From positions 1 to 30,091 of the forward strand of contig JAZDME010000026.1 in the NCBI GenBank assembly GCA_043801255.1: 30,091 nucleotides of DNA, written 5' to 3'. A program made the translations under genes and the position numbers. Positions 13,557 to 26,154 of this stretch are shown here, in pieces. The stretch's first letter is position 1; every line of letters starts with the position of its first letter. The DNA is from an archaeon. GTDB taxonomy: Archaea; Nanobdellota; Nanobdellia; UBA10117. The notes below the pieces were generated by a model, which was not told the origin of the DNA, made no database searches, and saw nothing but the letters and a program-made list of their open reading frames with translations.

Positions 13557-14206
13557 CGAAAACTGACGATGGACTAGGGCAAAGGTGTTTGATTATGGAA
13601 CAAATTGCTAAGCAATTTTTCCATTCCGCCAAATCGCTACGATTTGGCGTTAAGGGAAGCAAAAGTCCTGCCGAGAGAGAAACCCTGACACAATCAATGA
13701 GGCCCAAGCCGAACGAAGTTCGGCGGGGCGCAGCCGAAATCTCATTTCGGCTAGTGTTTTCCCCTCGTCGTAATCCGTCGTCGTCAAGAGCACAGTACTC
13801 CGTAGTCTACATGCTTGCGATTTCAGGAATACTGATTTTTTTGATGGGCGCTGTTTTTATCATGACAAGCAGTTTCCAGCGGGCAACAACCGAAAATTTC
13901 GGGCGCGAGATTCTTGGCAGCGTTACAGCGAAAATAGAAACCAGCCTGATTGAGTTTAAGGAGCTCAGCAAGAATGCAAACACGTCATCAGCAAACATAA
14001 ATATACCTGAACTTATTGGCGAGCAAAGGTATCAGGTAACAGCAAACCAGCACATGATTGAAATAAGAACATTCGGCAACCCGTCGCTGGTGCAGCAGTA
14101 TAACGTGACTTTCTGGGATGCGGATTTAGGCGGCTCTGTATTTTCTTCCAAAGGCAAGATACATGTGACATATTCTGCAGCCAACAATAAGGTGATGTTT
14201 GAATAA
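13553..14206 (+). CDS. Class III signal peptide protein with repeat-derived 80-aa leader
   Basis: ATG 13553 overlaps the upstream TGA (ATGA); SSRA|QYSVVYMLAISGILIFLMG follows the repeat-encoded leader. Confidence 0.72.
   Translation: MTKTDDGLGQRCLIMEQIAKQFFHSAKSLRFGVKGSKSPAERETLTQSMRPKPNEVRRGAAEISFRLVFSPRRNPSSSRAQYSVVYMLAISGILIFLMGAVFIMTSSFQRATTENFGREILGSVTAKIETSLIEFKELSKNANTSSANINIPELIGEQRYQVTANQHMIEIRTFGNPSLVQQYNVTFWDADLGGSVFSSKGKIHVTYSAANNKVMFE
13554..13786 (+). repeat. Palindromic repeat family copy 6 (longest, in frame inside a CDS)
   Basis: Ends TGACGA/TCGTCA; GGACTAGGGCAAAGG left, CCCCTCGTCGTAATCCGTCGTCGTCA right; several internal hairpin modules. Confidence 0.85.
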
Positions 14207-14207
14207 A

Positions 14208-14402
14208 CTGGCTGCTGCTGCGACTAACGACGACTAGGGAAAAGGATATTGATTGAGGGACAGTAAAAACTATCTTGGCTTGCGGATTAGGCAAAACATT
14301 TCAGCAAAGCTAAAATACATGGCGACCCGAGCCAACAAAGTTGGCTGGGCACAGCCGAAATCTCATTTCGGCTAGTGTTGCCCTCGTAGTCAGCAGTCGT
14401 AG
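14208..14402 (+). repeat. Palindromic repeat family copy 7
   Basis: ACGACGACTAGGGAAAAGGATATTGATTGAGGG...AAAGCTAAAATACATGGCG...GCCCTCGTAGTCAGCAGTCGTAG. Confidence 0.85.
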
Positions 14403-16359: not shown

Positions 16360-17241
16360 ATGGCCGCCAGTTCAAACATATATGCGCAATCATTCGGTTT
16401 ATTCAGCTCCATAGTCAAAAAGCACGAGAGTTTTTTCCAGCCGCTGCAGGACGACCTGAGAAAAGCGCACATCACAGTTCCGACAGAGCACTGGGCAGCA
16501 TTTACCATATTTGTGGCGGTTATGACGTCAATACCAGCTTTCATATTCTGCCTGATGTTTGCAGTCGTCGGCATGGGTTTCGGGCTGTCTGCGGTACTCG
16601 TGGGAATCTGCGCAGGCTTAGGCATAACTGCAGGCTCATTTTTTCTGGCGTATAAATACCCGTCCCTGGCAGCAGACGAGCGGAAAAAGAAAATCGAAAA
16701 CGCGCTTTCATTTTCAACAATTTACATGTCAACCATAGCGCGTTCAGGATTTCCGCCGCAGGAAATCTTCCGCCTTCTGGGCGGATTTACGGAATACGGC
16801 GAAGTTGCGAAGGAAGCAAGAAAAATATCCTCAGACATTAACGTGCTGGGGCTCGATGTGTCTGCAGCGCTGAACATGGCTGCGGCAAGAAGCCCGAGCG
16901 CAGACTGGACAGAGCTTCTCGCTGGGCTGAAAACAACAATCAATGTCGGCGGAGACCTTGGCAGTTTTCTTTCGGAAAAAGCAAAAGGATTTGTCGCGGA
17001 TTACAGGCGCAGGCTGAAGGACTTCAGCAATATGCTCAGCCTGCTGGTTGAAGTTTATATCACTCTGGTAGTTGTAGGAGTTGTATTTTTCATTGTTACA
17101 ACATCGGTAATGGTTGCAATAGGCGGCGTGCCAGTCGAGCTGATAAAAATGATAAATTACGCGCTGGTGCTGGTGGGAATGCCGATAATTACAGCAGCGT
17201 TCATATTAATCATAAAAGGAATTTCGCCCCTGGAGGCTTAG
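16360..17241 (+). CDS. T2SS-F/TadC-like pilus platform protein
   Basis: Multi-TM; ERKKKIENALSF...YMSTIARSG, GEVAKE..KI..DINVLGLD, TINVGGDLGSFL pattern next to the ATPase. Confidence 0.9.
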   Translation: MAASSNIYAQSFGLFSSIVKKHESFFQPLQDDLRKAHITVPTEHWAAFTIFVAVMTSIPAFIFCLMFAVVGMGFGLSAVLVGICAGLGITAGSFFLAYKYPSLAADERKKKIENALSFSTIYMSTIARSGFPPQEIFRLLGGFTEYGEVAKEARKISSDINVLGLDVSAALNMAAARSPSADWTELLAGLKTTINVGGDLGSFLSEKAKGFVADYRRRLKDFSNMLSLLVEVYITLVVVGVVFFIVTTSVMVAIGGVPVELIKMINYALVLVGMPIITAAFILIIKGISPLEA

Positions 17242-18429
17242 ATGGATAAACACAAGAGCAAGGACAAAACTGAATTTTTGGAAAAAGTAGAGCGCGAAAT
17301 CCTTGGAATTTACAAGCATAAATTTACAGTGCTTTTGGCAACGCTGCCAGTGCCCGTATTGCTGGCATTGGCAGCTTACCTGCTTGGCAGCACAAGCACA
17401 ACTGTTGTTGCTGTTCTGTCACTGGGATTGGTTTTTGTGCTGGTGCCGTATTCGCTGATAAGCTTTCTTGAGTTCAGGGAAATCAAGGCAGCAGAAGACA
17501 GTTTTCCGGCTTTTCTCAGGGATATAGCGCAGTCCGTGGCAGCAGGCATGACCATACCGCAGGCTGTTGCAACAGCGTCGCAGACAAACTACGGGGTTTT
17601 GTCAAAGTATGTGCAGAAACTTAATGCAATGCTTTCGTGGAGCATGCCTTTCCCGGACGCATGGGCGCGCTTTACAACCACATTGAAAAGGTCATCAATG
17701 ATAAGCAGGATAAACGCAGTCGTTCTGGAGTCATTTTATGCCGGCGGCGAGATAGGCACGGTTCTCAGTTCGCTGGCGACAGACGTAAACATGCTGAAGC
17801 GCATGGAATCTGATAAAAAATCAATGATGCAGGAGCATGTTGCAGTAATGTACTTTGTATTTTTCATATTTCTGGGAATAATAATAGGCCTGCACAAAAT
17901 TCTTGTCCCGATTTTATATGTGCAGAAACTAGGGGTTTTCGGCGGGCTTGCCCTGCGCCCCGCGGAAGTTATAACCGTTGAATATTTCAAATCGCTTTTT
18001 TTTGTCATGACTCTGATACAGGCAGTAAGCATCGGCGCCATCGCGGGGCAGATAGCTGAAGAAAGAATTATCGCGGGCTTGAAGCACGTTGTAATAATGG
18101 TCGCCGTAGGCATGGTTGCATTTTTCATTTTTGTTTTTCCGTCTACAATGACGCTGGACGCAGAAGTATTTCCAAGCACGCCGGCAATCGGACAGCATAT
18201 TTCAATCAGCGGCTCGGTAACCTTTGATGCGCAGCCTGCGTCAGGCGCGCAGGTGCAAATCATGCTATCAGACAACACGGCGCAGTCAGTATTTACAGAC
18301 GGGCTGGGCCAGTTTGATACTATTATTACCGCGCCCACTCAGCCCGGGCAGTATACAATTATGATTTCAGTAACTTACTCAGGAGAAACAAAGGTACTTT
18401 CAAAAGCAATTGCAGTGGGGATGGCATAG
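17242..18429 (+). CDS. Second T2SS-F/TadC-like protein with C-terminal Ig-like extension
   Basis: EDSFPAFLRDIAQSVAAGMTIPQA, ESFYAGGEIGTVL; ~90-aa beta-rich tail after the last TM helix. Confidence 0.88.
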   Translation: MDKHKSKDKTEFLEKVEREILGIYKHKFTVLLATLPVPVLLALAAYLLGSTSTTVVAVLSLGLVFVLVPYSLISFLEFREIKAAEDSFPAFLRDIAQSVAAGMTIPQAVATASQTNYGVLSKYVQKLNAMLSWSMPFPDAWARFTTTLKRSSMISRINAVVLESFYAGGEIGTVLSSLATDVNMLKRMESDKKSMMQEHVAVMYFVFFIFLGIIIGLHKILVPILYVQKLGVFGGLALRPAEVITVEYFKSLFFVMTLIQAVSIGAIAGQIAEERIIAGLKHVVIMVAVGMVAFFIFVFPSTMTLDAEVFPSTPAIGQHISISGSVTFDAQPASGAQVQIMLSDNTAQSVFTDGLGQFDTIITAPTQPGQYTIMISVTYSGETKVLSKAIAVGMA

Positions 18430-18454
18430 GGAAATAATCTGGAAATATGTCAGC

Positions 18455-18562
18455 AACGACGACTACTAGGGCAAAGCGCATTGATCCGGGCATCGGAAAC
18501 TCTCGGGGCTGGCAGTTGGTGCTCCCCCAAACAATAACAATAACCTAGTCGTCCGTCGTCGT
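18455..18562 (+). repeat. Palindromic repeat family copy 9
   Basis: ACGACGACTACTAGGGCAAAG left; CCTAGTCGTCCGTCGTCGT right. Confidence 0.82.
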
Positions 18563-18572
18563 AAAACAAAAA

Positions 18573-19418
18573 ATGTCAATAAAACAAAACCGCAATGCAC
18601 AATCGCCCGCCGAATTTATCATAGTTGTTTTTCTTTTTCTAATAATACTTATTTCGGTTTTCACAACGTTTATGACAAAACTCCGCCCGGAGATTGAAAA
18701 AGTGGTTGAGCAAAAAGCATGCCTGAAAGCAAGCGGTTTGGCCACGTACGTATTGAAAGAGCCCGGCTCGCCCTCAGCATGGACACCAGCGAATATTCAG
18801 ATATTCGGGCTGACTAACGGCACAGATGATATTATATCTTATGACAAGTGGCTTGCTGCGCAGGGCGCAGGCAATGCAGTCATAAGCAGAAAAGTGGTTC
18901 CCGACACAAGCTTTCTGCTCGGATATTCAATTTATGCTTTTAAGCCAGATGTTGCAGACACATGTCAGGCAGTAAATGGAACCGTGATTTGCAGGACTGG
19001 CACAGTCATACACATTACTTCGATATCTGCTTCTCAGGCAACACTTAACTTGAAACTGTTTTTCCCGTTCAGCACGGCAGCAGCAACCACAGGAACTAGG
19101 GAATCTGATGATACTGTTACAACAAGCAGCTCAAGCGGCACTACCATGACTATTGCGCTGCACACAAGCGCATCAGATTCGGACACGTTTGATATATCCC
19201 TGTCGGCATATCCGCGCCTGGCTTTTATACAGGAAGCAGACCACAAAACGTCCGGAGGAGTGAGCCTGCCGATTTTCATAGGAAACACTTCTGCAGTTGA
19301 AAGTTTCGGCTCCGCAACAACAGGCGTAAACAATTACTGCGAGGCAGAGCGTGGAGCGGACATTCTGGGAAAGAGTAATGAGCTTTTCCCGGCGAGGTTC
19401 AGCATACTGGCATGGTGA
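18573..19418 (+). CDS. Class III signal peptide protein (minor pilin-like)
   Basis: MSIKQNRNA|QSPAEFIIVVFLFLIILISVF with Glu at +5; C..A..LA..LLKEPG.P..W pattern. Confidence 0.8.
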   Translation: MSIKQNRNAQSPAEFIIVVFLFLIILISVFTTFMTKLRPEIEKVVEQKACLKASGLATYVLKEPGSPSAWTPANIQIFGLTNGTDDIISYDKWLAAQGAGNAVISRKVVPDTSFLLGYSIYAFKPDVADTCQAVNGTVICRTGTVIHITSISASQATLNLKLFFPFSTAAATTGTRESDDTVTTSSSSGTTMTIALHTSASDSDTFDISLSAYPRLAFIQEADHKTSGGVSLPIFIGNTSAVESFGSATTGVNNYCEAERGADILGKSNELFPARFSILAW

Positions 19419-19999
19419 TGGATATTACGGCTGGAGAGGTTTATGAACGAGGGCAAAGGGTATTGATTAAAGGCAGCCAGCGCCATCTCGATTGGCGAGC
19501 ATGGAAGACCGAAGCCATAACCAATGACCATTCCCCCCGTCGTCGTAGTCGTCGTTTAAACAAGAAGGGATTTTTTTATTTTGTGGAAGTAGCGCTTATC
19601 GGGATGCTGCTTATTACATTCTTTTTCGTATTTTCGCCAAAGGCGGAAACCAGCTATCAGGGCCTGCAGGATGCCAGAAATCTGAAACAGGCAGGATACG
19701 GAACTTTAAAATCACTTGATGACACAGGCGTACTTTCCGCGTATATAGATCCCAGCACAATGGCAAATTCAAATTTCGCAGCGCTTAAAACCTACATAAG
19801 TGCAGCCCTGCCAGAAGCAGTTTATTCGCAGATTGAATACGCCGAAAGCTCAACATCCTGCTATTCAGAAACAGGCGTCAGCAGAAGCTGCGGCTTGAAT
19901 GTAACAAACTTGAAAGCTGATGTGATAAGGGCAGATTATACTTATTCCAAGCGCCCGTCGCCAATAACCATACATATCTTTCTCTGGAGGGCGCTATGA
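19418..19999 (+). CDS. Class III signal peptide protein with repeat-derived 51-aa leader
   Basis: TGATG overlap with upstream stop; NKKG|FFYFVEVALIGMLLITFFF follows the repeat-encoded leader. Confidence 0.75.
   Translation: MDITAGEVYERGQRVLIKGSQRHLDWRAWKTEAITNDHSPRRRSRRLNKKGFFYFVEVALIGMLLITFFFVFSPKAETSYQGLQDARNLKQAGYGTLKSLDDTGVLSAYIDPSTMANSNFAALKTYISAALPEAVYSQIEYAESSTSCYSETGVSRSCGLNVTNLKADVIRADYTYSKRPSPITIHIFLWRAL
19425..19555 (+). repeat. Palindromic repeat family copy 10 (in frame inside a CDS; left arm degenerate)
   Basis: GAACGAGGGCAAAGGGTATTGATT, GAAGCCATAACCAATG, CCCCCGTCGTCGTAGTCGTCGT. Confidence 0.78.
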
Positions 20000-20805
20000 C
20001 TTGTGACGACGAACGGCTACGACGACTACGATTGATATCTCCATTGATTGAGGGAAGAAATGCTATTCCAGTTGACGAGAGCAAACATGACGCTCAGCAA
20101 AAGCCAAATACATGGCGATTGCCCTCGTCGTTTAGTCGTCGCTTCAGCAGCAGGGGGCAGTTCATGATTGTAACAATAGTCCTTATAGGGCTCGCATTTT
20201 TCACGATGTTCCTTCTTGTCAGGACTGCCGACAGGAATGCAGTTGTAATGTTTGAACAGCCAGAAGCAGCAGCAAATTTTGAGAACCTGCAAAATGCCAT
20301 AATACACAGGAACAGCTGGATGCAGGATTACTGGTGGAATCTTAACTGGGAAAATCGGGCAGCCATAAACATAACCGAAGGTGCGGAAAATCCTGTGATG
20401 GTAAACGCAGGAATTCCCGGAGGGACAAACTGCAACGGGGAAGTCCGCGTTGTAAATTCAACTGGCGCAGAGCTGAAATCAAATGTCAACTCAGAGCAGT
20501 CTCCGTGCAACGTTATTTTTACGGCGGACACAACAGGCATATACTATGTTTACTGGAATAATCCGGAGGCTGTAGCGCCTTCTTACAGAGTCGAAGTCCA
20601 GTCTGAAGGAAATGTGCCTGCAAGATACAATATCTTGGGAGAGGTTTCACCGAAGTCAAAATTCTGCCCCAATTTTGAAAATATTTCACTGGCAGCGGAA
20701 GCGCAGCTGGACTGCGGTATCCAGAGCATCATAAACAACAAAAAGGTCAACTATAAGATAGATTATGCTTCCACGGATTTTTCGTTCTCGGGATATTTGA
20801 GTTAG
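19996..20805 (+). CDS. Class III signal peptide protein with repeat-derived 54-aa leader
   Basis: ATGA overlap with upstream stop; SSRG|QFMIVTIVLIGLAFFTMF follows the repeat-encoded leader; WWNLNWENR.AINI segment downstream. Confidence 0.75.
   Translation: MTCDDERLRRLRLISPLIEGRNAIPVDESKHDAQQKPNTWRLPSSFSRRFSSRGQFMIVTIVLIGLAFFTMFLLVRTADRNAVVMFEQPEAAANFENLQNAIIHRNSWMQDYWWNLNWENRAAINITEGAENPVMVNAGIPGGTNCNGEVRVVNSTGAELKSNVNSEQSPCNVIFTADTTGIYYVYWNNPEAVAPSYRVEVQSEGNVPARYNILGEVSPKSKFCPNFENISLAAEAQLDCGIQSIINNKKVNYKIDYASTDFSFSGYLS
20004..20141 (+). repeat. Palindromic repeat family copy 11 (in frame inside a CDS)
   Basis: TGACGACGAACGGCTACGACGACTACG, ATTGATTGAGGGAAG, AAAGCCAAATACATGGCGATTGCCCTCGTCGTTTAGTCGTCG. 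Confidence 0.85.
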
Positions 20806-20853
20806 AATGAGGCAAAGCAAATTGCTATTTGCTAGTCCCATTTACTTCGTAAA

Positions 20854-21072
20854 TGAGGCCGCTCAGATTTGAACTGAGGTTGCGCAGTGTTTCTACACAT
20901 ATAGCATCCAAGTTTTGCAGGATTGGAAATCCTGCGCCTCTCTTTTGGGATGCCACGGAACCTTTTCTCTCGCGAGAGAAAAGGGAGTGTGCCCGAACCG
21001 CGAGTCCTTTGCTGCAAAGCAAACTAGCCAAAAGCTAGTTTTTGGCTCTGTACCAAACTAGACTACAGCCCC
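20854..21072 (-). tRNA. tRNA-Pro(CGG) with two introns: 43 nt at 20/21 and 103 nt at 37/38 (exons 21072-21052, 21008-20992, 20888-20854)
   Basis: Spliced exons give GGGGCTGTAGTCTAGTTTGGTAGGACTCGCGGTTCGGGACTGCGCAACCTCAGTTCAAATCTGAGCGGCCTCA (73 nt), full cloverleaf. Both junctions form relaxed bulge-helix-bulge motifs, each with one mismatch in the central helix; the first junction could shift by 1 nt. Confidence 0.88.
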
Positions 21073-21196
21073 ATAAGAATAATGCTTTACAAACTATTAT
21101 TAAATCTCACCCTTCAGCGATTCGTTAAAACAGCGTTAACTACGTACATATTGCAACATAATTAAACATTTAAAAGAATTATATTTGCATATTATC

Positions 21197-21607
21197 ATGC
21201 TTTCGCAAGAAGAGAGATCAAAGCTGAAAATAGATTTTAAAAATCCGATACATATATTGCAAAGTTTTAAAGAAAGAGGAAAAAGTCTTTTCGGAAATAT
21301 TCCAATGAATGAAATGCTTGACGAAGTAAAAAGGCACGTTCTAAATTACCAGAGAAGTGTAATTGTCCCTGATGATAGACCGAGCACACAAAGCACACAC
21401 AGTGCTATTTTTGTAACAGATTATGGAAAATTAGCTTCGATTCCTGTTGTTATTGACAAGGATAAAATAACCATTTTAACCTTGAAAGATGTGATAAAAG
21501 ATGAGGTAAACCCGAATTGGCACATCGGGCAGTTTAATGAAATTGGCAGCAAGAAAGGTTTAACAGCCTTACCACTACATTATAGGGCGAACAATGGCAA
21601 AGCTTAA
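21197..21607 (+). CDS. Putative DUF4258-like toxin/RNase
   Basis: H.LQSFKERG...EVKRHV..IVPDDR..SAIF..ITILT resembles remembered DUF4258 pattern; directly precedes a zinc-finger gene; AT-rich. Confidence 0.5.
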   Translation: MLSQEERSKLKIDFKNPIHILQSFKERGKSLFGNIPMNEMLDEVKRHVLNYQRSVIVPDDRPSTQSTHSAIFVTDYGKLASIPVVIDKDKITILTLKDVIKDEVNPNWHIGQFNEIGSKKGLTALPLHYRANNGKA

Positions 21608-21631
21608 ATTTTTGGAGTGTGTGTAATAATC

Positions 21632-21850
21632 ATGGCCAGCAGAAAATGTATCTCTTGTGGTGCGGAATTTGAAGAGAAAAAAGAATTAAAAGAAATAAAA
21701 GTAACTCTTCCAAATCCGGGAGAAATATTTTGCGAAGGTATTGTTATAACTTGTCCGAAATGCAAAGAAGATTATGCAGACCACGAGGATATGTTAAAAT
21801 TAGCGGAAAACTTTGAGAAAGCGTGCGAATCAAAGAAATTCAAAAAATAG
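21632..21850 (+). CDS. YgiT/MqsA-type zinc-finger protein (putative antitoxin)
   Basis: KCISCG ... ITCPKCKEDY spaced CxxC pair, 72 aa; GGAG RBS upstream of ATG 21632. Confidence 0.7.
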   Translation: MASRKCISCGAEFEEKKELKEIKVTLPNPGEIFCEGIVITCPKCKEDYADHEDMLKLAENFEKACESKKFKK

Positions 21851-21900
21851 CAGCATTAGGGATATTTATTATTTCCAACTACTTATCTCTTGAATTATAT

Positions 21901-22476
21901 TCAAATCTTCCTCGCAAACACAAGGAAAGCAGTATGCCCCAGAAGATGATGCTCGGGGCGGGCAATCTTGCCTTCAACAATCCAGTCGCGCTCGATTGTC
22001 TCAGATACCTTCACCAGTTTCAGCTTTGTTTTTGCCAGATATTTGGCAAGCTTTATTGCCTGGGTTATTTGCGGGCAGTATGCAACAAAGTAGCCGCCAT
22101 TTTCAAGGCTTTTTTCAGCGTGCTTTACAACTTTCCAGGGCTCCTGCAGGTCAATTGTAACAAGGTTGAGATCTCTTTCTGCAATTCCTTTGTAAATATC
22201 CTTTACCTTTAATTTTATACCATCAAACCCGAATTTTTTGAAATTATCTGCAGCAATCTTTGCAAACTCCTCTCGGTGTTCGTAAGTTGTTACCAAACCT
22301 TCAGCACCAGCCACATTTGCAATCTGCATTGCAAGCCATCCGCTGCCTGTTCCGGCATCTACTACGGTCCAGCCATTGCCAAGTCCAGTATTTGCAGCAA
22401 TTGCCCCGAAATCCTTTGGAAGAATAACTGCGGGCCCGCGCCTTGCTTTCCTCAGAATATCGTGCATGTATTTCAT
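21901..22476 (-). CDS. trmI: tRNA (adenine-N1)-methyltransferase TrmI/GCD14, short form
   Basis: RGPAVILPKD, VVDAGTGSGWL, YEHREEF, IDLQEPW, YCPQITQ, RPEH..LGHTAFL motifs. Confidence 0.92.
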   Translation of the reverse strand: MKYMHDILRKARRGPAVILPKDFGAIAANTGLGNGWTVVDAGTGSGWLAMQIANVAGAEGLVTTYEHREEFAKIAADNFKKFGFDGIKLKVKDIYKGIAERDLNLVTIDLQEPWKVVKHAEKSLENGGYFVAYCPQITQAIKLAKYLAKTKLKLVKVSETIERDWIVEGKIARPEHHLLGHTAFLVFARKI

Positions 22477-22506
22477 AGTCTTGCCAAATAAAGCATAACT
22501 ATCGGC

Positions 22507-22520
22507 AAGTTTTAAAACTT
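22507..22520. promoter_or_regulatory. Palindromic TATA-like element of the divergent trmI/secF promoter
   Basis: Perfect 14-bp palindrome AAGTTTTAAAACTT, 30 nt from the trmI start and 19 nt from the secF start. Confidence 0.5.
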
Positions 22521-22539
22521 ACCATAATGGGTTTTCAGC

Positions 22540-23469
22540 ATGTTTGACAAGGTCAAGAAATTTTATGAGGAAAAATACAGGATTTTAATGGTAATTACGA
22601 TGCTTTTTGTCCTGTTCTCTATCGGAACTCTTGCATATTCAAAAGTCACGACAGGGGAATTCATAAAGAAAGATGTCAGCCTGAAAGGCGGCCTGCTGGT
22701 TACTGTAAGCACTGACAGGACTTACAACCCGACTGAGCTTGCAAAAAGCATAGGACTCGACTTGGGAGTAAGCGTAAACGCCAGAGGCTTAGGCTCAGTC
22801 TCAGGGCAGAACATAGGTTATACTATAGAGATAGAAAAGCTCTCAAATTCTTCGACAGCGATTCCTGCAATTGAAAAGGCAATGGGCATCACCCTTGGCG
22901 CTAAGGATTATACAATTGAGGAAAGCTCCAGTGCGCTGGGAGAATCATTTTTTTCCAGCACGTTAGAAACAATAGGGCTCGCATTCCTGTTTATGTCAAT
23001 AGTAGTATTCTTTTACTTCAGGCAGCCGATACCTGCGCTTGCGGTAATTCTTGCAGGAGCTTCGGACCTGATTGGAACTTTTGCCATAATGAATCTTGCA
23101 GGAATCAGGCTTTCAACAGCAGGAGTAGCCGCACTGCTGATGCTTATAGGATTTTCAGTTGACTCAGACATTTTGCTTTCCGCAAGAGTTCTGAAAAGAA
23201 CTGAAGGCACAGTCATGGACAGAGTTTACAGCTCAGTAAAAACAGGGCTGACGATGCAGACAACTGCAATCGTAGCGCTTGCAGTCATGTGGATAGTAAC
23301 GCCAGCCGAGTTATTGAAGCAAATCGCAATGATACTGATAATTGGTTTGGTTTTGGATATTTTCAACACATGGGTGCAGAACGTCGGAATACTAAGGGCG
23401 TATATGGAAAACAGGGAGAAGCAAAGCGGAATGTTTTCCGCTGGTTTCACTAAGGTAAAACATGGCTAG
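22540..23469 (+). CDS. secF: Protein translocase subunit SecF
   Basis: KDVSLKGG, SSALGESF, AALLMLIGFSVDSDILL, IIGLVLDIFNTW motifs. Confidence 0.93.
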   Translation: MFDKVKKFYEEKYRILMVITMLFVLFSIGTLAYSKVTTGEFIKKDVSLKGGLLVTVSTDRTYNPTELAKSIGLDLGVSVNARGLGSVSGQNIGYTIEIEKLSNSSTAIPAIEKAMGITLGAKDYTIEESSSALGESFFSSTLETIGLAFLFMSIVVFFYFRQPIPALAVILAGASDLIGTFAIMNLAGIRLSTAGVAALLMLIGFSVDSDILLSARVLKRTEGTVMDRVYSSVKTGLTMQTTAIVALAVMWIVTPAELLKQIAMILIIGLVLDIFNTWVQNVGILRAYMENREKQSGMFSAGFTKVKHG

Positions 23470-25006
23470 CAAGGCAAAAGAAATCTTCACAAACTGGAGA
23501 GTCATCCTTTTGATACTGCTGCTGCTGGCATCATATGCCTCAATCAATCCCAAATTCAAGACCGAAGGCGTTTCGATAACTGCAGTTGCAACAAACAGCA
23601 GCGCAGAAATCAACGGCGTTCAGTCAGGCGCAACAATCACAGAGATTAACGGGCAGAAGGTCGCTAACATGGGCGATTACAGCGCGGCAGTCGCGAAGCT
23701 GCAGAACGGAACAATTGCAAAGTATGTTACCAGCAAGCAGACATATTCGTTTCCCATAGAGCTAAAAGACAACGCAACTTACACGGGCATAACAGTTAAG
23801 GAAATCCCAACGTCAAATTTAAAGCAGGGCCTGGACCTGATTGGCGGAGTGCGCGTGCTTCTGAAGCCCGAAGAACAACTCTCGGCACAGCAGATGTCTG
23901 ACGTTGTTGAGATAACCCGCGCTCGTTTAAACACATTCGGCCTGACAGACATGAATATACGCCAGGTCAAGGACCTGCAGGGCAATTCGTTCATACTTGT
24001 CGAACTTGCGGGCGCGACTCAGGAGGAAGCTACAAACCTTATTTCAAAGCAGGGAAAGTTTGAGGCAAAAATAGGCAACGACACTGTTTTCGTTGGCGGG
24101 GTTGACATAAAAGCAGTCGGGCGCTCAGCGCAGGAAGGCGCTGGAATAAGGACGTGCAACCAGGCAGACGCAGGATGGGTTTGCCAGTTTATGTTTCCTG
24201 TCACAGTGTCAACGGCATCCGCTGAAAAGCATGCGGCAATAACCTCACGGCTTGCAACCATAAATGTTGGCAGCGAAGTCTATCTTGAAAAAAAGCTGGA
24301 TATGTATCTTGATGATAATCTTGTAAACTCGCTGTATATTTCATCAAGCCTGAAAGGAAAAGTAACAACAACTTTTTCGATAGAAGGTTCCGGTTCCGGC
24401 AACAGCCGCGAGGCAGCATTTAACAACGCGCTGACAGACATGAAAGAGCTGCAGACAGTTTTGATTACAGGCTCGCTTCCGGTAAAATTAAGCATCGCCA
24501 AAATTGATGTTGTTTCCCCGATTCTCGGGCAGGCATTTTTGCAGTCAGCCATTATAGCGCTTGTTGCAGCAATTGCCGCAGTCGGCGTAGTCGTTTTCAT
24601 AAGATACAGAAGGCTGAAAATAACGCTGCCGATAATGATAACAGGGCTCTGCGAGATTTTCATAATATTCGGAATGGCTGCGCTGATAAAACAGAATCTT
24701 GACCTGGCGGCAATTGCCGGAGTCTTGGCAGCAGTTGGAACGGGCGTAGATGCGCAGCTTGTAATTACAGATGAAGTGCTGACCGGAGTCAAGCGGCAGA
24801 TTTACAACTGGAAGGAGCATTACAAAAATGCATTTTTCATTATAATGGGCTCTTTCTCAACAGTTGTCGCGGCAATGATTCCGCTTCTGTGGGTTGGCGC
24901 AGGCGCCCTGAAGGGCTTTGCAATAGTCACTATCATCGGCGTCTCAATCGGAGTTTTCGTAACAAGGCCTGCATATGCGAGAATTGTTGAAGTTTTATTG
25001 AAATAG
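23462..25006 (+). CDS. secD: Protein translocase subunit SecD with PDZ-like insertion
   Basis: KQGLDLIGGVRVLL, RLNTFGL, LITGSLPV, VSPILG, GTGVDAQLVITDE, LKGFA..TIIGV motifs. Confidence 0.93.
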   Translation: MASKAKEIFTNWRVILLILLLLASYASINPKFKTEGVSITAVATNSSAEINGVQSGATITEINGQKVANMGDYSAAVAKLQNGTIAKYVTSKQTYSFPIELKDNATYTGITVKEIPTSNLKQGLDLIGGVRVLLKPEEQLSAQQMSDVVEITRARLNTFGLTDMNIRQVKDLQGNSFILVELAGATQEEATNLISKQGKFEAKIGNDTVFVGGVDIKAVGRSAQEGAGIRTCNQADAGWVCQFMFPVTVSTASAEKHAAITSRLATINVGSEVYLEKKLDMYLDDNLVNSLYISSSLKGKVTTTFSIEGSGSGNSREAAFNNALTDMKELQTVLITGSLPVKLSIAKIDVVSPILGQAFLQSAIIALVAAIAAVGVVVFIRYRRLKITLPIMITGLCEIFIIFGMAALIKQNLDLAAIAGVLAAVGTGVDAQLVITDEVLTGVKRQIYNWKEHYKNAFFIIMGSFSTVVAAMIPLLWVGAGALKGFAIVTIIGVSIGVFVTRPAYARIVEVLLK

Positions 25007-25063
25007 TAGTTTTCAATAAAACTAGCCAAACACTTTGTTTGGCTTTGTTTTGCTGAAATAATA

Positions 25064-25219
25064 CTGACGACTACTACGACGAACTACTAGGGCAATTTCT
25101 TATTTTTGTGTCAGGGTTTCTCTCCCAGCAAGATAGTTTTGCTTTCCCACAATCAATGGAGATATCTCTGGTTCGTCGTCAGCCGTTCCGTAATTGCCCT
25201 CGTCGTCAGTCGCAGTCGT
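25064..25219 (-). repeat. Palindromic repeat family copy 12 (core in reverse orientation)
   Basis: CTGACGACTACTACGACGAACTACTAGGGCAAT / ATTGCCCTCGTCGTCAG; minus-strand core CCATTGATTGTGGGAAAGCAAAACTATCTTG. Confidence 0.85.
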
Positions 25220-25269
25220 AATCATCAGCATATTTTTATATAGGCGAAACCATCCATGTTAAAGGTCAC

Positions 25270-26154
25270 ATGGTATTAGAGGATTTAATTCCCGTGCATC
25301 TGGCGGAAAGCAACCCATTGACTGTGCTGCCAATATCATTTCTTTACTCGACTCTGGCAATTTTTCTTGCGCTGTGGATTTTTCCGGCAAATGCAGCCAT
25401 AGTCGCGGTATTTTTAACAACTATAGCGTGCATGCCCCTGCTGCTCAGCGTCATAGGATTTGAAAAGGAGAAATCAGAGTCAAGCAGAGGCTACCTGAAA
25501 GACCTGCTGACAGATTTTTTCAAAGGCGACGTGCAGGAAGGCGGCGCAAAAACAGTTTTATCATTTTTTATGACAATGTTTATCGGCCTGACTTTGGCAA
25601 TAACATTCTGGTACACAGTCCTGCCGAAGGACATGCTTGTCAACCTCTTTTACCTGCAGCTGAACACAATAAAGGAAATAAACCTCGGAATTTCAGGCAA
25701 CGCAATTGTACCGGCATTTTTCGGCAAGATACTCGTAAATAATATCAAAGTGCTGGCATTTTCAATCCTGTTCTCGTTTATTTACGGCGCCGGCGCGATT
25801 TTTGTTATCTCCTGGAATTCTTCAATAATAGGCGTTGCAATGGGCGAGAGCATAAGAAAGGGAATCGCGCAGTTCACAGAGTCAACAGGCTTCGGAGCCA
25901 TTGCAGGATACTCTTCCGCAATCTCCGTCGGAATATTCAGGTATATGTTACACGGAGTTCCGGAGATTCTGGCATTTTTTGTCGGCGCTCTTGCAGGCTC
26001 GCTGATTTCAGTTGCCATAGTAAGGCACGAATATGATTCGGAAATGTTCAGGAAAACGCTGACTAACTCTGCAGGATTGCTCGGAGTGGCGATGTTACTT
26101 TTATTAATAGGCGCAGTTATCGAAGTAACGATATCGCCGCTGATAAGGCTATGA
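25270..26154 (+). CDS. SpoIIM (DUF95)-family membrane protein
   Basis: Multi-TM; ILVNNIKV..FSILFSF.YGAG..WNSSIIG and HGVPEILAFF..ALAG motifs. Confidence 0.85.
   Translation: MVLEDLIPVHLAESNPLTVLPISFLYSTLAIFLALWIFPANAAIVAVFLTTIACMPLLLSVIGFEKEKSESSRGYLKDLLTDFFKGDVQEGGAKTVLSFFMTMFIGLTLAITFWYTVLPKDMLVNLFYLQLNTIKEINLGISGNAIVPAFFGKILVNNIKVLAFSILFSFIYGAGAIFVISWNSSIIGVAMGESIRKGIAQFTESTGFGAIAGYSSAISVGIFRYMLHGVPEILAFFVGALAGSLISVAIVRHEYDSEMFRKTLTNSAGLLGVAMLLLLIGAVIEVTISPLIRL

Follow-up and report, generated by a model that had tools for sequence, protein, structure and literature searches.

A 43-nt D-loop intron in a tRNA-Pro gene of a DPANN archaeon shares its hairpin core with a dispersed palindromic repeat

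The 43-nt insert in the D-loop of a tRNA-Pro(CGG) gene aligns over its entire length, including the parts outside its hairpin, with a family of tRNA introns, and its hairpin belongs to the same sequence family as intergenic hairpins of the genome. The insert is probably a BHB intron from a mobile family, inherited or converted at this site, with the intron family, or a common palindromic element, predating the intergenic copies. The gene lies in a window of 30,091 nucleotides, the whole stretch of DNA that was analysed, from a 0.68-Mb genome (G000).

The tRNA-Pro(CGG) gene occupies positions 20854–21072 on the minus strand, with three exons (21051–21072, 20992–21007 and 20854–20888) and two introns. 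The unspliced gene was detected neither by ARAGORN with default settings nor by Rfam. In-silico removal of 21008–21050 and 20889–20991 joins the exons into a 73-nt tRNA-Pro(cgg) that ARAGORN calls as intron-free; removal of the 43-nt insert restores the canonical cloverleaf. Since the spliced tRNA is accepted, the insert at 21008–21050 is a 43-nt D-loop (20/21) intron, as the earlier note had proposed, and from its sequence it is predicted to be a spliceable BHB intron. Its boundary is ambiguous by one A; 21009–21051 is equally possible. In the g9 orthologs of this gene the anticodon arm is contiguous and identical in sequence. The second intron, 103 nt long at the canonical 37/38 position (20889–20991, minus strand), is unrelated to the first in sequence and size. 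It is of a long multi-copy type: several loci in relatives match its first ∼55 nt, the metagenomic relative L071 has an almost identical stretch over the first ∼65 nt, and long introns of this type carry nested passenger AGCCGAA hairpins in relatives.

Within the 43-nt intron, the AGC-closed hairpin (21026–21047, minus strand) has a perfect 8-bp stem with arms at 21040–21047 and 21026–21033 and a loop at 21034–21039, and is followed by AG at 21024–21025. An alternative inner hairpin of 8 bp (21021–21041, minus strand), which pairs AAACTAGC with GCTAGTTT and includes two CTAG motifs, is mutually exclusive with it and appears in the MFE folds of the whole gene and of a D-arm construct. By eye, the T-loop members from g9 and g10 have the same double-palindrome design. 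In the 3' chassis of the intron (21008–21020, minus strand), as read from the MFE fold, GCTTTG (21015–21020) pairs with CAGAGC (21045–21050), CAGC (21011–21014) faces exon TTTG and the 3' splice site lies in an AAA bulge (21008–21010). The splice-defining parts (the outer CAGAG/CTTTG pairing, the exon-facing four nucleotides and the AAA bulge) are mostly outside the hairpin, which counts against the earlier suggestion that a hairpin landing in the D-loop made a new intron.

The modelled splice motif is a relaxed BHB only. The strict hBHBh' motif (two 3-nt bulges, a 4-bp helix between them and flanking helices) is not formed by the tRNA-Pro intron. Its 3' site fits a BHB, with the AAA bulge between CAGC and the D-stem strand, and the central helix TTTG/CAGC has three of four pairs and one mismatch, the MFE fold pairing TTTG with CAAA instead. 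A perfect 4-bp central helix is present in the Gly, Ser and Leu members and in the g9 ortholog, and the Gly, Ser and Leu members fold as D-stem, 3-nt bulge, 4-bp helix, loop and hairpin. A gene for the splicing endonuclease EndA is present (C64:837–1574, minus strand; 245 aa, domains PF02778 and PF01974).

The layout of the intron family is CARAGC-hairpin-GCTAGTTT-SC-TYTG, followed by four nucleotides that pair with the exon and then AAA. An alignment of ten introns (A1) has the consensus CAGAGCGAAA..TTTCGCTAGTTTCCTTTG.AGGAAA and a mean column identity of 70%. It comprises the D-loop introns of Pro, Ala, Phe and Gly in G000, a D-loop intron of G018 (family f3) and T-loop introns in g8, g9 and g10; the host tRNAs in the alignment are those for Pro, Ala, Phe, Gly, Ser, Lys and Arg. 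In G000 the D-loops of up to six tRNAs are occupied by the family, with four clear members; the last 21 nt of the Ala intron are identical to those of the G018 intron. The A1 hairpin is paired in 77 of 77 cells, with eight compensatory cells and compensatory changes at three pairs; none of 500 shuffles paired as well and no slid control came close. The outer helix is 82% paired and one of its pairs covaries (AU in four, GC in three, GU in two). Alignments among members from tRNAs of different identity give z values of 4.5–6.8, and near-identical hairpins recur across identities (18/19 for Ser and Phe, 16/17 for Pro and Ala). As in transposed or mobile tRNA-intron families, near-identical introns are found in different tRNAs and their presence or absence among close relatives does not follow the tRNA body. 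Outside G000, six of eight true copies of the strict core lie in tRNA introns.

The intron string (21050–21021, minus strand) and the intergenic string (25047–25019, minus strand) are present as the earlier note quoted them and do share the same stem and the same end. Two matches to AGCCAAA-N3-14-TTTGGCTAG lie in the window, where 100 shuffles predict 0.00, and the 682-kb genome has three in all, the third of them (C27:10385–10407) directly 3' of tRNA-Pro(UGG); the signal here lies in two arms plus flanks, and the arms of one hairpin do not count as independent evidence. Global alignment of the intron (2000 shuffles) gives z = 5.05 with the 25047 copy and z = 5.49 with a copy on contig C70, and in these alignments both copies resemble the intron beyond the hairpin. 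A profile built from intergenic type-C copies only recovered the intron on its sense strand at a genome-wide E value of 0.027, a broader family profile, with all AGCCAAA copies excluded from its training, recovered it only at E = 0.54 (9.9 bits), and plain BLAST between intron and intergenic DNA returned only a 12-nt exact match (E = 1). By the two-armed pattern, the type-C profile and the alignments, the similarity stands above the genome background, and the view that the intron and intergenic hairpins form one sequence family, multi-copy and expanded in this lineage, is supported.

The intergenic copy of the core (25019–25047, minus strand; profile E = 5.4e-6) lies 13 nt past the secD stop codon and adjoins a large palindromic repeat (about 25064–25219). 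A type-C module in the 3' trailer of tRNA-Pro(CGG) (20813–20836, plus strand, antisense to the tRNA; profile E = 0.0038) has behind it a second copy of the tRNA 3' end, an arrangement also found behind tRNA-Pro(UGG) on C27 and behind tRNA-Leu on C78; no such trailer follows tRNA-Pro in L071. This module and the other related hairpins listed in the earlier note are real, the latter at 13732–13756 and 14353–14377 (listed at 13731 and 14352). These last two belong to two REP-like doublets of hairpins, one of AGCCGAA hairpins at 13701–13756 (plus strand) inside a large palindromic repeat and a second at 14329–14377 (plus strand), 621 nt downstream (repeat family D12, 95% identical).

The genome contains 109 copies of the AGC-closed repeat, 80 of them with the exact AGCCGAA stem, with stem variants of the AGCC, AGCG and AGCA types; a reversed-pattern control gave 0. 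These are dispersed, short, imperfect palindromes with compensatory stem variation, as in REP and REPIN elements. Other genomes of the same family (f1) have 1–10 copies each (2–10 in genus g9), and no AGCCGAA repeat was found outside f1. Type C is one flank class, with about a dozen intergenic copies that have the core CAAAGC-hairpin-GCTAG; in most copies of the repeat the flanks are different (GCAC..WGTG, GCCC..WGGG), and these copies form doublets within large palindromic DNA repeats. Adjoining host sequence recurs in the flanks of type-C copies, once inverted and once in direct orientation (GCCTCAT after tRNA-Pro; the secD end). Copies also occur inside tRNA introns, apparently in open reading frames and as passengers in unrelated long introns (C59 and C77; G008), and hairpin density is 4.3 per kb in tRNA introns versus 0.88 per kb in other non-ORF DNA (∼5-fold). 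No RAYT-like gene flanked by family hairpins was found in this genome, which is 72.55% complete. Its only Y1 transposase, a PF01797 gene (C74:1235–1666) adjoining a divergent ORF that is TnpB-like by eye, belongs to an ordinary IS605-like unit with an end hairpin of different sequence, and there are no family hairpins on contig C74.

The same tRNA-Pro site is interrupted by a D-loop intron in three g9 genomes (G008, G016 and G014), where the central helix is a clean TTGG/CCAA, and in a g6 paralog from G005. Alignment of the Pro introns of G000 and g9 gives z = 4.7. L071, a 1.4-kb contig, shares its exons, gene orientation and long second intron with G000; its D-loop intron has the same 3' end, terminating in GCAGCAAA, and lacks the AGC...GCTAG core. 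Relatives whose tRNA-Pro(CGG) has no D-loop intron, which the earlier note proposed to look for, were found in L067, in g7 and in the syntenic g6 gene. This patchiness among close relatives makes independent gains possible. Exons 1 and 2 of the L067 gene are identical to those of G000 and the third is slightly different. L067 is a sister contig collinear with 17119–25497; its secD–spoIIM spacer (about 62 nt) contains neither the 25019–25047 hairpin nor the large palindromic repeat, and loose hairpin searches give no hits in its 7 kb versus four in the matching G000 stretch. Because it is absent from L067, the 25019–25047 copy appears to be younger than the intron family. Identity in a pilin-like region gives (G000,(L071,L067)), and in a SecD tree G000 groups with L067 in a clade that includes g7, g6 and g9. 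Conservation of the intron in lineages without the repeat, which would have spoken against the inference of the earlier note, is not clear-cut: g9 has an intron at this site, but g9 genomes have 2–10 repeat copies. The tRNA-Gly(UCC) intron at 20/21 is present in G000 only, the g9 ortholog having another intron instead, and some of the six D-loop introns may thus have been acquired recently, at the time of the hairpin burst. Of 39 genomes of the order, only G000 had matches to the D-loop pattern AGYYYGGKA+YARAGC.

The intron belongs to an older mobile family present in several related genera, which indicates that the hairpin did not create the intron here. In the favoured reading, the chassis would consist of a 5' CARAG(C), the AGC-closed hairpin, GCTAGTTT, SC and a TYTG that pairs back to CARAG, followed by four bases that complement the exon loop immediately before the 5' cut and an AAA bulge containing the 3' cut. 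The endonuclease would cut the relaxed BHB with its imperfect TTTG/CAGC helix, and the hairpin would be a stable interior of the intron rather than a splice signal. The tRNA-Pro intron would have been inherited or converted from another member, and the 25019–25047 copy and the other type-C copies, as one flank class of the REP-like repeat, would share its core. On balance, the intergenic copy is more likely to postdate the intron family, or a common element, than the reverse. Several observations weigh against the favoured reading: the repeat far outnumbers the introns (109 hairpins versus six introns), some copies are embedded in large DNA-level palindromic repeats and are unlikely to be intron-derived, and the passenger hairpins in unrelated long introns fit invasion of introns by a DNA repeat. 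The restriction of the D-loop pattern and of the tRNA-Gly(UCC) intron to G000, the poor central helix of the tRNA-Pro intron, its patchy distribution and the shortness of the L071 contig count on the same side.

One alternative is seeding in deep time, in which a palindromic DNA element (CARAGC-hairpin-GCTAG) gives rise to introns and only copies in D- or T-loops that acquire, or already have, four nucleotides complementary to the loop persist as such, the others becoming REP-like hairpins. The same core and flanks in introns and intergenic DNA of two genera fit this reading, as do the wider-family hairpins nested in unrelated introns and exon-facing nucleotides that, by eye, vary with the host loop (CAGG for CCTG, CGGG for CCCG, TGAG for TTCA). 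However, no mobilizing enzyme was found, the only Y1 transposase lying in the IS605-like unit, no pair of empty and filled sites was seen for an intron, and the near-identical hairpins across tRNAs fit intron-to-intron copying equally well; the reading seems unlikely. The wider claim, that protein-spliced tRNA introns of this DPANN order are seeded by this non-coding element as a mobile agent, with its other copies persisting in spacers, leaders, trailers and even ORFs, can be offered only tentatively and is rather unlikely.

The reverse direction, from excised and possibly circularized introns or their DNA copies to the type-C hairpins and perhaps the whole AGCC hairpin burst, is distinctly unlikely. 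It would account for the mostly intronic location of strict-core copies outside G000, for an intron family (f1 and f3) that is wider than the AGCCGAA repeat (f1 only), for the absence of the 25019–25047 copy from L067 and for the resemblance of the 25047 and C70 copies to the intron past the hairpin, but neither the exon-facing element nor the AAA end is present in the intergenic copies, and most repeats have other flanks and sit as doublets in large palindromic DNA repeats.

The reading advanced in the earlier note, in which a small mobile hairpin inserted at the DNA level into this D-loop and was kept as a new, splice-competent intron, is improbable. The hairpin family looks mobile, is expanded here (80 copies, with at most 10 in relatives) and is concentrated in tRNA introns, L067 has matching exons (the third differing slightly) without the intron, and the YARAGC-type D-loop junction is, by one pattern, restricted to G000. 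Against this, all 43 nt match an intron family that extends to other genera and to a second family of the order, g9, the g6 paralog and L071 have an intron at this site (in L071 without the core), the G000 and g9 introns align, and the exon-facing 4-nt element is found in no intergenic copy. Chance or convergence is very improbable: GCCAAA is the complement of D-loop TTTGG and can pair with it, AGC closure is common here, g9 D-loop introns also contain CCAA, the BLAST and broader-profile matches have E values of 1 and 0.54, and, by eye, the exon string CTAGTTTG reappears within the intron, which would allow an exon origin for part of the GCTAGTTT end (roughly p = 0.01), but the two-armed pattern, the type-C profile, the alignment z values of 5.0–5.5 and the same flanks in nine further introns with covarying stems speak against coincidentally shared ends.

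Bacterial REP, BIME and REPIN elements are mobilized by RAYT transposases. The repeat resembles them in its short imperfect palindromes, covarying stems, frequent doublets, mostly extragenic location and expansion in a single lineage, and differs in its archaeal host, in that no hairpin-flanked RAYT-like gene was found and in its copies in tRNA introns and apparently ORFs. Introner elements, known from some algae and fungi, are DNA transposons that give rise to spliceosomal introns. The conceptual likeness is that a repeated mobile DNA element is tolerated in genes through removal by the host splicing machinery; here, however, that machinery is a protein endonuclease acting on a BHB rather than the spliceosome, and the element has no demonstrable splice signals of its own. 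Transposed tRNA-intron families are known from the Thermoproteales (Fujishima et al., 2010, Mol Biol Evol 27:2233, as described in PMC4090602; Sugahara et al., 2008), and in that account how these introns move is unknown, a process at the level of DNA being suspected. The Thermoproteales are Crenarchaeota, whereas the present host is a DPANN archaeon; moreover, the intron core here also lies outside tRNA genes in a genome-wide REP-like repeat, and one chassis serves D-loop and T-loop sites with only the exon-facing four nucleotides changed. In Caldiarchaeum, tRNA genes are disrupted by integrating mobile elements (Sugahara et al., 2012, PMC3293823). That case likewise ties archaeal tRNA-intron gain to a mobile element, with heterogeneity among close relatives, but involves a 1.8-kb element encoding a recombinase rather than a 25–45-nt non-coding palindrome.

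How tRNA introns arrive in archaeal genomes is an open question; for Asgard archaea, a tRNA-intron census from 2026 put copying, mobile elements and reverse transcription to the test without arriving at a general route. The shared core ties tRNA introns to a genome-wide repeat, with one defined sequence family present both as D- and T-loop introns in many tRNAs of at least two families of the order and as dispersed intergenic hairpins. This dual form, together with a recent burst in one genome and sister contigs without individual copies, makes the origin of the introns testable. For annotation, the family serves as a warning, as most tRNA genes of this organism are missed by default tRNA finders. 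If seeding by the palindromic element is true, it would be a prokaryotic counterpart of the introner transposons.

The tRNA-Pro(CGG) gene occupies 20854-21072 on the minus strand of the window and is composed of three exons and two putative introns. In-silico splicing places a 43-nt intron in the D-loop, between positions 20/21 and 22 (21008-21050, minus strand; the boundary is ambiguous by one A), and a 103-nt intron at position 37/38 (20889-20991, minus strand). Removal of both leaves a 73-nt cloverleaf that ARAGORN calls as tRNA-Pro(cgg). Neither default ARAGORN nor Rfam reports a tRNA at 20854-21072, and Rfam returned no family for the intron, its hairpin or the unspliced gene. The genome of the DPANN archaeon under study, G000 (682,609 bp in 80 contigs, 72.55% complete, 43.7% G+C; relatives range from 0.3 to 1.2 Mb), of which the window is the whole of contig C13, has at least one intron in nearly all of the tRNA genes found in it and encodes a tRNA splicing endonuclease, EndA (C64:837-1574), with N-terminal and catalytic domains. 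Neighbors of the gene include pilus/T2SS genes, trmI, secF, secD and a SpoIIM-like gene. A 140-residue open reading frame between the tRNA and trmI (21185-21607) has no Pfam match and no counterpart in L067, a metagenomic contig of a relative.

The main new result is that, by sequence comparison, the tRNA-Pro D-loop intron is a member of an intron family. In five further G000 tRNAs the same D-loop position holds an intron starting YARAGC: Ala(CGC; G3-U70) (C24:3069-3104), Phe(GAA) (C25:4258-4295), Gly(UCC) (C69:3100-3136), Ser(GGA) (C8:25633-25666) and a type-II tRNA read as Leu(GAG), which ARAGORN parses differently (C28:3353-3386). The sequence following the hairpin is identical at 16 of 17 nucleotides between the Pro and Ala introns, and the hairpin itself at 18 of 19 between Ser and Phe. 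A whole-length alignment of ten introns gives 70% mean column identity; a stem pair flipped from G-C to C-G and a few extra bases make up most of the departure of the tRNA-Pro intron from the consensus. When 39 genomes of the order were searched with the core plus flanks, genuine copies turned up in six genomes besides G000 (two matches in the reversed control). With tRNA identities in relatives read by eye, these are a D-loop intron in tRNA-Ser(GCU) of G018, from a different family of the order, and T-loop introns in G013 (tRNA-Ala GGC), G007 (genus g8), G009 (genus g10; tRNA-Lys CUU and tRNA-Arg CCU) and G008 (genus g9); in genus g8, two more core copies precede an orthologous ATPase gene. 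A D-loop search pattern that proved too narrow did not pick up the G018 intron, where the D-loop starts with AA; restriction to G000 is true of that pattern, not of the family. No complete intron copies outside tRNA genes were found by blastn-short; a supposed second copy of the Gly intron (C69:6312-6330) falls inside an open frame and matches by chance.

Several other intron features were observed. At C24:2975-3127, ARAGORN with introns allowed returns tRNA-Pro(tgg), and removal of the D-loop intron gives tRNA-Ala(CGC) with G3-U70 and a 41-nt intron at 37/38. A separate T-loop family, with two short hairpins and ending GATGCAA/GTAAA before ATCC, is hosted by tRNA-Phe and tRNA-Gly in G000 (C25:4170-4230 and C69:3009-3060) and by tRNA-Pro and other tRNAs in genera g6, g7 and g9 (stretches L024, L035, L036 and L064 from relatives). 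An identical AGCCGAAT-GAA-ATTCGGCT hairpin is a fixed part of one long multi-copy intron subtype in g9 and g6, nested in the first pyrimidine/purine hairpin of the intron (L186:261-279 and 815-833; L184, L189, L192 and L026; G008 and G005). A further intron position in the family lies earlier in the D-loop (about 15/16), where a long intron ending ...GGTTGGACA before CTGGTA is present in tRNA-Gly(UCC) of g9 (L125/L126; G008 and G016) and in a CAU-anticodon tRNA of G000 (C77:6751-7030).

Across the aligned family, 77 of 77 cells of the AGC-closed hairpin are paired, with compensatory changes in three pairs; none of 500 shuffles approached this and slid registers were at most 48% paired, a covariation result to be read knowing that shuffle tests overstate the significance of hairpins. 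An outer helix, CARAG/CTYTG, is 82% paired, one of its pairs varying as AU (4), GC (3) and GU (2), and shares two base pairs with the hairpin. The minimum-energy fold of tRNA-Pro contains a second inner hairpin, formed on two CTAG motifs and mutually exclusive with the AGC-closed one. As read from folds and sequences, the four bases that precede the terminal AA(A) fit the loop of the host: CAGG/CCTG in Gly, Ser and the G018 member, CGGG versus CCCG/CCTG in the C28 tRNA and Phe, and TGAG/TTCA in the T-loops. The Gly, Ser and C28 tRNAs fold into the D-stem, a 3-nt bulge, a 4-bp helix, an asymmetric loop containing the 5' cut, and the hairpin. The central helix of tRNA-Pro (TTTG/CAGC) has only three of four pairs, a relaxed form outside the strict bulge-helix-bulge (BHB) motif. 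A strict BHB through TTTG/CAAA, traced by hand, was rejected, as the 3' cut falls two bases into the D-stem strand and yields a tRNA lacking the D-stem. In these models the splice-relevant parts of the intron would lie mostly outside the hairpin.

The earlier note had likened the hairpin of this intron, an AGC-closed module (AGCCAAA stem) ending GCTAG, to an intergenic copy at 25047; both quoted strings were confirmed in place, and the likeness holds up. Against an expectation of 0.00, the window has two occurrences of the two-armed pattern; G000 has three, the third directly behind tRNA-Pro(UGG) on C27. Global alignment of the intron gives z = 5.05 with the 25047 copy and 5.49 with a copy on C70, the pattern and alignment figures being inflated by the same property of shuffles. 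A profile of 14 intergenic copies retrieves the tRNA-Pro intron on the correct strand at a genome-wide E of 0.027; a broader profile, with AGCCAAA copies left out of training, finds it at only E = 0.54, and BLAST by itself gives E = 1. From these pattern, alignment, profile and BLAST results, the signal of the hairpin alone is real but modest, and the shared hairpin represents real homology. Derivation of GCTAGTTT from the exon, with exon CTAGTTTG repeated within the intron, was rejected (p roughly 0.01, and not general to other members).

The hairpin belongs to an abundant repeat. AGC...GCT is by far the commonest hairpin closure in G000 (477 of 4400 hairpin records; the next triplet has 232), and AGC-N-R-A-R stems number 109 non-redundant copies, 81 with the AGCCGAA stem and others with variants including AGCG, AGCA and AGCCAAA. 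The exact AGCCGAA palindrome is present in 80 copies in G000 and in 10, 5, 4, 2, 2 and 1 copies in family-mates; none occurs in 24 genomes of other families, and the reversed-pattern control was also zero. Copies occupy spacers, 5' leaders of unrelated genes, tRNA trailers, the large palindromic repeats of C13 and tRNA introns, at a density of 4.3 per kb in tRNA introns (seven copies in about 1.6 kb) versus 0.88 per kb in other non-ORF DNA under a crude ORF mask. In relatives, AGCCGAA doublets (L181, L187, L188, L193 and L200; G005, G008 and G012) lie in a frame open across a whole 521-nt fragment, and some of these copies may be in frame inside protein genes.

Of three flank classes, type C, which is the module of the earlier note, has (A/G)CAA before and AG(T/C) after the hairpin and comprises about 14 copies. 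Type-C copies at 20811-20860 and 24990-25075 of the window, C27:10380-10420 and C78:3255-3310 are arranged as X, rcX, hairpin, X', host sequence next to the hairpin recurring in both inverted and direct orientation, which may reflect palindrome extension or target duplication. GCCTCAT, the tRNA 3' end, is repeated behind the trailer hairpin in both tRNA-Pro genes, and the final secD codons are mirrored past the stop; L067 has the same residues in other codons and no hairpin. Behind each of three 5'-leader copies (C39:1735-1753, C8:18514-18531 and C65:4988-5005) comes a second small hairpin that pairs with a GGTGA/GGTAA ribosome-binding site before ATG and shows C/T-G/A covariation; the three genes encode Topo VI B, an arginase-family enzyme and a T2SSE-like ATPase. 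A shared regulatory site was rejected, as these genes and another with a leader copy, for a secreted protein, are unrelated. A system of the REP type, mobilized by a Y1 transposase (RAYT), was also rejected: the sole Y1 transposase (143 residues) adjoins a divergent ORF of about 400 residues, TnpB-like by eye, in a single IS605-like unit (C74:1-1700) whose end hairpin has no relation to the AGC family. No mobilizing enzyme for the hairpins was identified in the 72.55% complete genome.

The secD-linked tRNA-Pro(CGG) gene is syntenic across the family. A D-loop intron is present at the same site in g9 (G008, G016 and G014), with a perfect TTGG/CCAA helix, and in a g6 paralog; the g9 and g6-paralog introns align to the G000 intron with z = 4.7, 3.5 and 3.0. 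Relatives having tRNA-Pro without this intron, which the earlier note had proposed to seek, were found: it is absent from tRNA-Pro(CGG) in g4, g5, g7, g8 and g10, from the syntenic g6 gene and from L067. A second metagenomic contig, L071 (1.4 kb), matches G000 in exons, orientation and neighbors, and its long second intron starts almost identically; the 33-nt D-loop intron of L071 has the same GCAGCAAA end and no AGC...GCTAG core (z = 2.8). Collinearity of L067 with the window covers 17119-25497, and a SecD tree makes L067 the sister of G000 (100/100); its tRNA-Pro(CGG) gene (L067:3448-3555) is inverted relative to G000, lacks a D-loop intron and carries another, short intron at 37/38. The pilin-like genes of L071 and L067 are 67% identical, compared with 58% and 56% to G000. 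Since these two contigs resemble one another more than either resembles G000, the D-loop intron would most simply be older than the split, with loss or replacement in L067. Between secD and spoIIM, L067 has a spacer of about 62 nt and G000 one of 263 nt, the difference being the hairpin and a large palindromic repeat.

The tRNA-Pro site appears to have been occupied before the hairpin burst in the G000 lineage, and the 25047 copy appears younger than the intron family. The proposal that a hairpin inserted into the D-loop and so created a new intron here is unlikely, because most of the splice parts are beyond the hairpin, the site already had an intron and the intergenic copy is younger. For the families as a whole, an intron family older than the intergenic repeat is favored by its wider distribution and by its mostly intronic habitat outside G000. 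The opposite direction, in which the dispersed hairpin repeat gave rise to introns, is favored by hairpin numbers, by hairpins nested within unrelated long introns (C59 and C77; G008 and G014) and by possibly recent D-loop gains, such as that in tRNA-Gly.

The closest published parallel to the G000 intron family is intron transposition in Thermoproteales, a process whose mechanism is reported as unknown (PMC4090602). A mobile-element route has been proposed for the tRNA introns of Caldiarchaeum (PMC3293823), and a 2026 Asgard census of tRNA introns found no general route. What occupies the tRNA-Pro D-loop is an entire intron from an established mobile family, and the broader connection of BHB introns with a dispersed palindromic repeat stands.
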